Source of the DNA: a virus
Taxonomy: Duplodnaviria > Heunggongvirae > Uroviricota > Caudoviricetes
Reading direction: 5' to 3' (one strand)
Length of the DNA: 5,134 nucleotides
IMG/VR virus record: IMGVR_UViG_2675903661_000011
Span: 1 to 5,134 of that record
Shown here in pieces: positions 1 through 3,000 of this stretch. The first letter of the stretch is position 1. Each line of letters starts with the position of its first letter. The position numbers were made by a program.

Positions 1-3000
1 ACGGATACGACGAACCTGAACGCGATGTACCACAAGAAGCAGAATGCGAAGCTGGATACGTTCGGGGTCTTTGATAACGGATGGCACACACTGGCTTTTG
101 AGTTTGCCGGAAACAACAGCATTCAGGTGACGCCGGTACTGGATGAGAAACGGGGTACGCCGTTCACACTGGTGAAATCTCCGGCATCAGGGGCGGCGGA
201 CAAACTGCAACTGACAGACATATCAAAGGCGGCGACATATACGTTGCTGATTGACAGTGTGAAGGTGGAAGTGAACAACGCGGATGCCGCGGCATGATAA
301 AAAAGGCCGCCAGCAATGAAGGAAAGGGATGAACTTTGTCCACTACATGAATGCTGGCGGCTGGTAAAACGACCATGATGACACCGAAGTCTGCGGTGTT
401 TTTCTACAAAAATAAGTAAATCATGTCAACTATCACGGTGAGAAACCATGACATTTCTGAACCAGTTAATGCTGTACTTCTGTACGGTGGTCTGTGTGCT
501 GTATCTTCTTTCGGGTGGGTACAGGGCAGTGCGCGATTGCTGGCGCAGGCAGATTGATAAAAGGGCCGCAGAGAAAATCAGCGCCAGTCAGTCAGCCGGA
601 AGCAAACCCGAAGAGCCGCTCATTTAGCGGCAACTTTCTTAACAACCCTTTTCAACGAGAAAATCCCATGTCAGAAATCACATCCCTGGTCACTGCAGAG
701 GCAGTGAAGGAAGTCCTGCGCTCTGAAGAAGTCCTGAGCGCACTGAAACAGAAACTTCGCCATAACCTGGAAGCGCGTCTTGATGCAGAAGTGGATGCCA
801 TTCTGGATGAACTGCTGGGCGCACCGGCAGCTCCGGAGCCGGAAGGCATCGCGGGTGAGGGGAGTGCTTCAGATAGCGGTGAACCCGCACCTGACAGCGA
901 CATGATGATGTAAGCATGCGCAAGGGACCATCGGTGTGTGCCGGTGGTCTTTATATTGTTGTGAGCTTCCGGATTGCGGGAGACGGGGTATGTACCAGAT
1001 GGAAAAAATCACAACAGGTGTGTCATACACCACGTCAGCGGTGGGAACGGGCTACTGGTTCCTGCAGTTGCTGGACAGGGTTTCCCCGTCTCAGTGGGCG
1101 GCAATAGGCGTTCTGGGGAGTCTGCTGTTTGGGCTGCTGACATATCTGACGAACCTGTATTTCAAAATCAAAGAGGACCGGCGTAAGGGCGCCCGGGGAG
1201 AGTGAATAATGAACCATGAAGAAATGAATCAGCGCTTCAGTCGCCTGGAAAATGAAATTGCTGAACTGAATAAAAAACTGTCGACGCTGATGCCTTCTGA
1301 AGATGAAAAAAAACGCCGCGATGAGCAGTTTGCTGCGTTTGACGATTATTGTCGGAAAGTGATGAGCAGAAATCTCGCAGAGTGTTTCAGTATTCATAAT
1401 GATAATTTCAGTGAGCTGGAATGGGAGTGTAACCGGCCATCCTTTGTTGTATCCGGTGATGGTGTGAAAATAACCATCTCAGAAAATGGGAAAGTAACAC
1501 CTCCATCGCACCAGCACAGTGAGGAGCTCATTGAATTTGCCATTGATTACCTGAAGAACAATAAAAAACAGGGGCTGATGCAGCGCATTGGTCGTTGCAT
1601 GGGGTATCTGCAGGTAGCCGCTGAGATTGAAGCGCTGGCCAGTGGTGCGGACAAGGATTCAGTTGTGCGGGAGGCACTTCTTCGTGATTTTGATCATCCG
1701 CCCTTTAAAAAAGTGCCGGCTTACTGGCTTCATCCCGGACTGACTTATCTGAAAGTGCGTATTTAGTGGGCCTGGGACAGCGGCTGAATATTTAATATAT
1801 CCATGAACACAAAAATCAAATACGGCCTGTCGGCTGCCGTTCTGGCGTTGATTGCCGCAGGGGCTTCTGCGCCTGAAATCCTCGACCAGTTTCTGGATGA
1901 AAAAGAAGGTAACCACACCACGGCATACCGTGATGGTGTGGGTATCTGGACCATCTGCCGTGGAGCCACCCGGGTGGATGGTAATCCTGTGATTCCTGGC
2001 ATGAAGCTGTCGAAGGAAAAATGCGACCAGGTTAACGCCATTGAACGGGATAAGGCGCTGGCATGGGTGGAGAAAAACATCAGAGTGCCACTGACTGAAC
2101 CCCAGAAAGCGGGTATTGCGTCATTCTGTCCTTACAACATTGGCCCGGGTAAGTGTTTCACGTCGACGTTTTATAAACGAATTAATGCAGGAGATCGCAG
2201 GGGAGTGTGTGAAGCGATTCGCTGGTGGATTAAGGACGGTGGCAGAGACTGCCGTATTCGCTCAAATAACTGTTATGGTCAGGTATCCCGTCGTGACCAG
2301 GAGAGCGCGCTGGCGTGCTGGGGAATCGACAGATAAGCAGAATATTTTGCTGAAAAATGACGTTGGTCAACGCGGACGGATAACACGAAATCCTGCGAAC
2401 TGGCAAAACCTAAGTGAATAAAAGTAAAAAAACCGTTTGTTAGCAGCAGGTGGGGTTTTGTGTTTCCTGACTCCGGAAAAGTCAAAGGAGAAAGTGTGTT
2501 TGATTTTAGCAAACTGATTCGGGAGATTTGAGTGATGGCTGAAAAATTATCCACCTGGAAGTTCATCCTTATCTGGCTGGTGTTTGTGATTATGGCCCCC
2601 GGTTATTTCATCGGTCAGATACGCTGGTGGTGAAATGAACCGCGTTCTGTGTGTGGTCATCATTGCCCTGCTGGTGGCCTGTGGTGCGCTTAGTCTGGGG
2701 CTGAATCATTACCGCGATAACGCCATCACCTACAAAGAGCAGCGCGATAAAAAAGCCAGAGAGCTGGAGCTGGCAAACGCAACCATTACTGATATGCAGC
2801 AGCGCCAGCGCGATGTTGCTGCGCTCGATGCAAAATACTCGAGGGAATTAGCCGATGCGAGAGCTGAAAATGAAACTCTGCGTGCTGATGTTGCCGCTGG
2901 TCGTAAGCGCCTGCGGATCAACGCCACCTGTCCAGGCTCCGTGCGTGAAGCCCCCACCACCTCCGGCGTGGATAATGCAACCGGCCCCCGACTGGCAGAC

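Follow-up and report, generated by a model that had tools for sequence, protein, structure and literature searches.

DUF1378 and DUF826, a conserved gene pair ahead of the lysis cassette of a lambdoid Escherichia coli prophage, and its possible role as a late accessory unit at the membrane

Between the 3' end of a NanS-p-type esterase gene and the lysis genes, a 5,134-nucleotide stretch of DNA from a virus of the class Caudoviricetes (positions 1 to 5,134 of IMG/VR virus record IMGVR_UViG_2675903661_000011, hereafter the window) carries two small genes on the plus strand, one coding for a 59-residue protein of the DUF1378 family (ATG 448 to TAG 627), the other for an 81-residue protein of the DUF826 family (668-913). 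Both are real genes, and purifying selection acts on the frames as called. They are also coupled, though not obligatorily, as they are found adjacent in both orders and in near-identical numbers of phage records. We read them, with a confidence that falls somewhat short of even, as an accessory unit of two genes within the Q-dependent late operon of an E. coli lambdoid prophage that does not encode Shiga toxin (Stx), that is, as a non-essential membrane pair that is made late and modulates the lysis or envelope stage. The pair itself is not the holin, and is not required for lysis by the pinholin and the signal-anchor-release (SAR) endolysin. Nor is the gene pair a new discovery: DUF1378 and DUF826 are already catalogued, and the label 'unannotated-type', given to the two open reading frames (ORFs) in an earlier sequence-only reading of this DNA, has to be dropped, since PGAP names both genes, and Pfam and PHROG families exist for them.

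Nucleotides 1-5110 of the window are 99.8% identical to the late region of a lambdoid E. coli prophage in NZ_CM143728. The gene order in the window is esterase 3' end, ORF1 (DUF1378), ORF2 (DUF826), S21-type holin, a 185-residue ORF, endolysin, Rz/Rz1, cos, Nu1 and the start of gpA. In NZ_CM143728 the operon starts with Q, a methyltransferase gene, three tRNAs, TerB, DUF3927 and iraM, the last of these on the opposite strand; the full esterase gene comes next, and there is no stx gene. The earlier placement of the two ORFs, in tandem on the same strand and directly 5' of the lysis cassette, is borne out: they lie after the esterase end at 297 and before the holin gene at 990-1205. The same is true of its description of the site as a late-operon cargo position of lambdoid prophages; this site is promoter-proximal, beside the esterase and just before the lysis cassette.

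ORF1 matches the Pfam model of DUF1378 (PF07125; phrog_494) over its full length, residues 1-59 on model positions 1-59, with 131.5 bits against a gathering cut-off of 25 (E 1e-38). It has a Shine-Dalgarno sequence, GGTGAG, 5 nt upstream of the start, and its product is 100% identical to RefSeq WP_000143464 (PGAP 'DUF1378 family protein'). ORF2 matches DUF826 (PF05696; phrog_311) with residues 1-75 on model positions 1-75, at 132.8 bits (gathering cut-off 25; E 5e-39); its product is 100% identical to RefSeq WP_033885090 (PGAP 'DUF826 domain-containing protein'), and the coding sequence called by PGAP has the same coordinates. The sequence-only reading had described ORF2 as an 84-residue acidic protein at 659-913. 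The stop at 913, the acidic character and the tail rich in Asp, Glu, Pro and Ser (residues 52-81) all stand, but the start does not: positions 659-661 read GAA, which is no start codon, and the conserved ATG 668, which aligns with position 1 of the Pfam model, gives 81 residues.

Coding was assessed in an alignment of the window with 60 distinct homologous sequences (61 in total). Codon positions 1/2/3 have a variability of 0.047/0.024/0.104 in ORF1 and 0.014/0.013/0.076 in the first 51 codons of ORF2, and the pooled ratio of nonsynonymous to synonymous substitution rates (dN/dS) is 0.20 for ORF1 and 0.24 for residues 1-51 of ORF2, compared with 1.7-3.2 in shifted control frames; for the ORF2 tail it is 0.53. 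Conservation of both frames among related prophages, which the sequence-only reading had named as a check on its claim, is thereby established.

A different gene model, in which the true product is a longer protein in the DUF826 frame (139 residues from GTG 494, similar to L0106 of phage 933W) or a fusion of DUF1378 with DUF826 through a +1 frameshift, has next to no credence with us. Its appeal is that no stop interrupts the DUF826 frame over the 46-66 codons that precede ATG 668 in 61/61 sequences, which accounts for the long forms in the original annotation of 933W (L0106, 148 residues) and in many database entries (109-141 residues). Openness, however, carries no information here, as no more than 8 neutral single changes would turn a codon of the upstream DUF826 frame into a stop; where this frame overlaps ORF1, variability peaks at the third codon position of ORF1, and the DUF826 frame has a dN/dS of 1.05. 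The Pfam model, moreover, begins at M668, and the two in-frame 'fusion' proteins in the databases come from frameshift-ridden contigs. We therefore rejected both the long isoform and the frameshift fusion, the upstream frame having no coding signature of its own. As a separate observation, the DNA at 568-600 and 655-680 is near-invariant even at third codon positions, including in relatives with an overall identity of only 60%, and the segments beside these two stretches have mosaic, recombinant patterns; the invariant stretches may be recombination anchors or be under additional constraint at the RNA level.

The product of ORF1 conforms to the earlier description of a single-pass membrane peptide with a basic C-terminal tail (start and stop codons, Shine-Dalgarno sequence, hydropathy and charge all agree). 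Its only hydrophobic segment spans residues 4-24 (457-519, LNQLMLYFCTVVCVLYLLSGG), with a best Kyte-Doolittle score of 1.98 for a 19-residue window, and is strongly conserved; the N-terminal side is uncharged. A basic helix of net charge +4 follows at residues 25-50 (520-597), identified from its charge, its conservation and the AlphaFold2 (AF2) model, in which residues 2-50 form one long helix. A short acidic, proline-rich end follows residue 50, and the net charge of the whole protein is +3. By the positive-inside rule, DUF1378 is predicted to be a bitopic inner-membrane protein with the N-terminus outside and the C-terminus, including the basic helix, in the cytoplasm. Members from E. coli, Mu-like and Stenotrophomonas prophages share the invariant residues L9, Y10, F11, V15, L18, Y19, L20, G23, G24 and Y25, and such unusual conservation of a membrane helix suggests that it may make specific contacts within the membrane rather than serve as a mere anchor.

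DUF826 has no hydrophobic segment and is strongly acidic (18 Asp plus Glu against 6 Lys plus Arg, net charge -12, isoelectric point 4.1). Residues 1-51 (668-820) constitute a conserved domain of two helices, at residues 2-17 and 20-49, modelled by AF2 with a predicted local distance difference test (pLDDT) score of 90-98 for residues 21-50; the 18 members compared have 37 invariant columns, 36 of them within this domain. The remainder (821-910) is an acidic, disordered and fast-evolving tail (pLDDT <50 for residues 56-72), which is variable in sequence and length, with whole proteins of 78-101 residues, though in every case acidic, with many Pro, Gln and Ser residues. In clades with a long tail, this tail ends in a hydrophobic tip (MMM in the window, and MMM, MML, TML, TLL or AMM among the members) that recurs in distant members. 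In Salmonella-type prophages, the DUF826 gene found alone behind Rz belongs to a clade with a short tail.

These features can be assembled into the following scheme. The pair would be made only late, through antiterminated read-through; DUF1378 would insert with its N-terminus out and C-terminus in; its basic cytoplasmic helix would dock the acidic, cytoplasmic DUF826; and the two together, working on the cytoplasmic side of the inner membrane, would modulate the last envelope step without being indispensable to it, lysis timing being the most likely target.

The first step of this scheme draws on the RNA signals around the genes. Manual reading and a crude consensus scan found no σ70 promoter on the plus strand at 404-447, and none was found upstream of stand-alone DUF826 genes either. 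Downstream of the pair, at 923-962 on the plus strand, lies an intrinsic terminator between DUF826 and the holin gene S, made of a 13-bp stem (hairpin 923-952) and a T-tract (z -3.1); four different compensating stems preserve it in divergent lineages, and in the Mu-like context, too, a clean terminator directly follows DUF826. The lack of a recognizable σ70 promoter, together with the conserved terminator before S, makes expression through Q-antiterminated late transcription probable. DUF1378 and DUF826 are thus probably expressed only late, by read-through of the Q-modified polymerase, which fits the induction of nanS-p, the gene upstream of the pair, by 1-2.4 log on mitomycin C (PMC10462455).

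The same signals bear on another explanation, namely that the pair is ordinary late-region cargo of the moron type, unrelated to lysis and serving superinfection exclusion, lysogenic conversion or some other host-modulating membrane function, its position reflecting the small number of permissive insertion sites. We regard this as possible, though on the unlikely side. Terminator-like hairpins on both flanks of the pair are in its favor. A long GC-rich hairpin lies just past the esterase stop codon (305-362, plus strand; RNA fold of 296-412, -38.4 kcal/mol, z -4.8) and has analogs in the loci L099 and L100; a small hairpin followed by UUUUUCU, a weak terminator-like site, lies upstream of ORF1 (381-405, plus strand), with a z of only -1.4, and was not picked up by the consensus scan, in a region that is the most variable among relatives. 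The downstream terminator that belongs to the moron definition is supplied by hairpin 923-952 and its T-tract. For the promoter half of this definition, however, the crude scan gave no candidate, either between the upstream hairpins and ORF1 or upstream of the DUF826-only genes. Likewise, the microarray signal of ECs1211 in uninduced Sakai cultures (PMC2241611) would suit cargo expressed in the lysogen, but it is ambiguous, as it could come from spontaneous induction or from cross-hybridization among several copies.

Two further sites were noticed in the same DNA. On the minus strand, within 395-430, TTGACA-17 nt-TAGAAA makes a fair promoter-like site aimed into the 3' end of the esterase gene, and its TGTCAA core is conserved among relatives. 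On the plus strand at 966-982, part of the Shine-Dalgarno sequence of S is paired within a hairpin, CUUCCG-GAUUG-CGGGAG, which is present in each of the lineages that were folded; it resembles sdi of lambda, the element that sets the ratio of holin to antiholin starts. Rfam gave no match in the window.

The distribution of the pair is wide. Its DNA is present in 1,021/5,426 complete E. coli genomes (~19%), with a median of 3 copies. Among some 50,700 phage records, DUF826 is found in 306, mostly of Stx-converting phages (including those converting to Stx2a, Stx2c and, in many cases, Stx1a), and DUF1378, as a query on its own, in 309. No DUF826 relative was confirmed in the GTDB species-representative genomes. 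We surveyed gene neighborhoods by a profile search of 1.8 billion representative proteins, exact-protein look-ups, scans of IMG/VR and inspection of annotated records, and found seven classes of arrangement, five of which adjoin a lysis cassette; the cassettes concerned represent three holin families and two types of endolysin.

The lambdoid arrangement of the window, esterase-DUF1378-DUF826-S-R-Rz, holds for all of 80 IMG/VR loci to the extent that their flanks cover it, and for divergent members as well. Mu-like E. coli prophages (27 IMG/VR loci and four complete genomes) have tail-fiber assembly-invertase-esterase-DUF1378-DUF826-x-com-mom, and a complete prophage of this type, inserted in bcsA, has the pair at its gin-mom end, more than 20 kb from any lysis gene. 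A P2-like form reads gpX-holin-lysozyme-LysB-LysC-esterase-DUF1378-tail completion, without DUF826. In Stenotrophomonas prophages and phage BUCT709 (9 loci), the order is S21-type holin-SAR endolysin-Rz/Rz1-DUF1378-tail fiber, without either DUF826 or esterase, and the start of DUF1378 overlaps the stop of Rz, i.e. the two are translationally coupled. Locus L154 has Phage_holin_8 (PF16931)-GH19 endolysin-Rz/Rz1-74-residue ORF-DUF1378-HNH-terminase. Salmonella-type lambdoid prophages have DUF826 alone, as (S-)R-Rz-gap-DUF826 in 45/54 loci, with a gap of ~229 nt in most; 36 of the 45 read R-Rz-DUF826, with no further gene matched. Finally, loci L246-248 have tail fiber-assembly protein-DUF826-DUF1378, i.e. 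the reversed order, next to an acetyltransferase. Each gene is thus also found without the other, DUF1378 in 15 loci and DUF826 in about 51-54. The known range of DUF1378 now includes Stenotrophomonas, P2-like and Mu-like prophages, and its usual place is at the end of a lysis cassette.

Some observations on these loci stand apart. BUCT709 (OM816835) encodes an unannotated 71-residue S21-type pinholin (L114, 3721-3936; PF04971 E 4e-21) just upstream of its annotated lysozyme, as well as an embedded Rz1-like lipoprotein ORF that is also without annotation. Near the Salmonella-type stand-alone DUF826 genes, hidden Markov model (HMM) searches found no DUF1378, and a 35-residue hydrophobic ORF upstream of them, considered as an analog, was rejected, being intact in 7/40 distinct sequences and without a match to the DUF1378 HMM. 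In L104 (6001-8944), a stand-alone DUF826-like gene comes directly before a sialyltransferase-like gene (phrog_4603) and a methyltransferase cluster, so that here, too, a neighbor is related to sialic acid or glycans, as the esterase is in E. coli.

Every cassette examined has a holin of its own, of PF04971 in the window and BUCT709, of PF16931 in L154, and, in locus L191, one with a weak match to the HP1 family PF16080 (18.5 bits, below the gathering score of 28.8). DUF1378 and DUF826 are therefore not the holin of the cassette, and neither matched any holin model in Pfam, NCBIfam or PHROGs at E <= 0.1. DUF1378 does have the transmembrane helix and charged C-terminal tail found in holins of any class; these are generic features, not specific to holins. 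The earlier comparison with a holin/antiholin-like pair is accordingly upheld in part: five of the seven arrangements border lysis cassettes, with three holin families, and adjacency is kept even in the reversed order, but there is no homology to holins or antiholins.

What favors a lysis-associated role is, first, the recurrence of the genes at cassette borders in unrelated backbones; second, the translational coupling of DUF1378 to Rz in the Stenotrophomonas class, along with expression that is apparently only late; and third, a fitting anatomy, i.e. a conserved membrane helix, complementary charges and a C-terminal tip that would be tethered.

Other observations weigh against such a role. 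The S holin already encodes its own antiholin by way of the dual start M1/M4. Phage records with an S21-type holin number 434, compared with 306 that have DUF826, and ~128, including H-19B and 4A7, do without the pair. In Mu-like prophages the pair is far from the lysis genes, and in L246-248 it follows tail-fiber genes. Unrelated cargo is known to accumulate at the borders of lysis cassettes, and position by itself is thus weak evidence. In searches for an antiholin or lysis regulator, neither protein matched a PHROG or Pfam family of the lysis category, or any PDB sequence or fold. Two apparently natural DUF1378-DUF826 fusions (P0193 and P0235), candidates for evidence of the Rosetta-stone kind, had to be discarded as sequencing artefacts, each confined to a single contig in which the neighboring genes are shattered by frameshifts.

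Several of these facts are what the cargo explanation would lead one to expect. The pair occupies the classic slot between Q and S, beside tRNAs, TerB, iraM and the esterase; it has two further hot spots, one at the gin-mom end of Mu-like prophages, the other beside an acetyltransferase, past the tail-fiber assembly genes; what follows DUF826 in the DUF826-only clade is variable cargo, for instance a secreted protein or a sialyltransferase-like cluster; and distribution is patchy, with many functional phages lacking the pair. On the other hand, PADLOC gives no defense match, and coupling of DUF1378 to Rz in Stenotrophomonas prophages is not easily accommodated by cargo unrelated to lysis.

The esterase suggests yet another role, in which DUF1378 and DUF826 are helpers of the NanS-p-type esterase cassette, and hold, inhibit or position the enzyme in the cell until release; we think this quite improbable. 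The SASA-DUF6645 esterase gene is immediately followed by both genes, or by DUF1378 alone, in the window and across three of the seven classes, whose backbones (lambdoid, Mu-like and P2-like) are unrelated, with a spacing of only ~30 nt and a single terminator after DUF826 in the Mu-like form, and 306/353 phage records with NanS-p carry DUF826. NanS-p (gp84 of phage phi24B) is reported to be a structural protein that decorates the capsid and cleaves itself after release (bioRxiv 10.64898/2026.04.10.717836). The link is nevertheless not obligatory. DUF1378 occurs without esterase in Stenotrophomonas prophages and in L154, and DUF826 does so in 54 loci; conversely, ~47 phage records with NanS-p, including H-19B and phage 86, lack the pair. 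In the part of the phi24B virion proteome data accessible to us, none of three DUF1378/DUF826 peptides is present, a weak negative for such small proteins, and the part of the virion protein table that we could consult has no ORF at the expected coordinates of the pair. Co-transfer of these genes with the esterase can be explained by physical linkage alone. A side observation concerns the esterase of Mu-like prophages (L097, 2669-4750), which lacks the capsid-binding DUF1737 domain and has a different N-terminal segment of ~110 residues; this suggests that it may be attached to the virion in a different way.

The sequence-only reading had also compared the two proteins with toxin/modulator pairs, in which a toxic membrane peptide is neutralized by an acidic protein. 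Apart from the general shape, a small hydrophobic peptide with a basic tail beside a small acidic partner, and the adjacency that is kept in both orders, nothing supports the likeness, and we consider it very improbable. No similarity to toxins, antitoxins or defense proteins was found by sequence, profile or fold (nothing in PADLOC at E <= 1, and nothing in Pfam or NCBIfam), DUF826 has no DNA-binding motif, and the pair has no promoter of its own that we could find. The frequent solitary occurrence of the genes (DUF1378 in Stenotrophomonas and P2-like prophages, DUF826 in Salmonella-type ones) is hard to square with an obligatory pair of toxin and antidote. Structure searches gave no lead in any direction: the AF2 models are simple helices, with no sequence matches in PDB and no Foldseek matches in PDB or BFVD. 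PHROG 494 and PHROG 311 are both catalogued as of unknown function. In the literature, a single paper names both DUF1378 and DUF826, and states that their function is unknown (PMC10462455); a second match for 'DUF1378' is a typing error for DUF1738, and searches with L0106 and the Z-number names returned nothing useful.

The genes described next also lie on the plus strand of the window. The esterase 3' end (1-297) encodes the C-terminal DUF6645 jelly-roll domain of a sialate O-acetylesterase (Pfam DUF6645 E 4e-22; phrog_143), and the full gene in the 99.8% identical prophage encodes 658 residues with the domains DUF1737-SASA-DUF6645. The class II holin (pinholin) S of the S21 type (990-1205; PF04971 E 2e-32), with the N-terminus MYQMEK, starts 77 nt downstream of the pair. 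The lysozyme-type endolysin is at 1803-2336 (PF00959 E 9e-25) and has a SAR-like N-terminal segment, MNTKIKYGLSAAVLALIAAGASAP. The Rz spanin follows at 2635-3102 (PF03245 E 3e-49), with Rz1 embedded in it at 2855-3040 (PF06085 E 3e-21). Between S and the endolysin lies the 185-residue ORF (1209-1766), which belongs to phrog_1085, of unknown function, and has no Pfam or PADLOC match; among relatives this slot is empty, or contains a DUF1327/YdfR gene or other inserts. Another small ORF, hydrophobic and of 33 residues (2532-2633; phrog_6632), has its stop 1 nt before the Rz start codon, is 94-100% conserved in ~18 IMG/VR loci and H-19B, and has no PGAP annotation in the matching genome; it is a candidate for an extra small membrane protein within the lysis cassette. 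A lambda-type cosN sequence, GGGCGGCGACCT, is at 3356-3367, inside the 440-nt non-coding stretch between Rz and Nu1. The last 24 bases (5111-5134) differ from the 99.8% identical prophage and bring in a stop codon, which cuts the terminase large subunit short at 352 residues; a contig end, a junction or an artefact is the probable cause.

In Stx phages, the pair sits between the toxin or esterase genes and the lysis genes, where release of toxin depends on late transcription and lysis. If it tunes the timing of lysis, or handles the capsid-decorating esterase, it bears on toxin output and phage spread in Shiga toxin-producing E. coli; if it is ordinary cargo, we are dealing merely with two more conserved genes of unknown function. 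In either case, the analysis corrects the gene model and replaces the label 'unannotated' with that of a widely distributed 'known unknown' of Stx-type phages. A stronger form of the lysis-associated role can be imagined by analogy, in which DUF1378 and DUF826 would represent a previously unrecognized and widespread class of lysis-timing regulators of temperate phages, a membrane-anchored protein and its cytoplasmic partner acting on holin and endolysin release in the manner of RI and RIII. We see this as unlikely; if true, the pair would help set the burst time of Stx phages, and hence their output of Shiga toxin and virions.

Among known systems, ORF1 is an ordinary member of Pfam DUF1378/PHROG 494, with the same size, transmembrane helix and basic tail, and ORF2 differs in nothing from Pfam DUF826/PHROG 311, in which only the first ~51 residues are a conserved domain. 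The closest functional picture may be that of phage T4, where membrane-tethered RI and RIII, a small cytoplasmic helical protein, form an antiholin pair that serves lysis inhibition and is not needed for lysis itself. The general layout, a small membrane protein and a small cytoplasmic helical one, is shared; there is no sequence or profile similarity, however. The functional domain of RI is periplasmic, whereas the tail of DUF1378 is predicted to be cytoplasmic; the T4 genes, for their part, are located outside the lysis cassette. S21 71, the antiholin produced from the dual start of phage 21, acts on the same type of holin as the one downstream of the pair, but DUF1378 and DUF826 are separate genes, unrelated to it in sequence, and S in the window already has the M1/M4 start. 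With the lambdoid morons (bor, lom, stx, nanS-p) the pair shares its neighborhood, the flanking terminators and patchy presence; it differs from them in having no detected promoter of its own, in an association with lysis cassettes that recurs in unrelated backbones, and in being coupled, in one lineage, to Rz.

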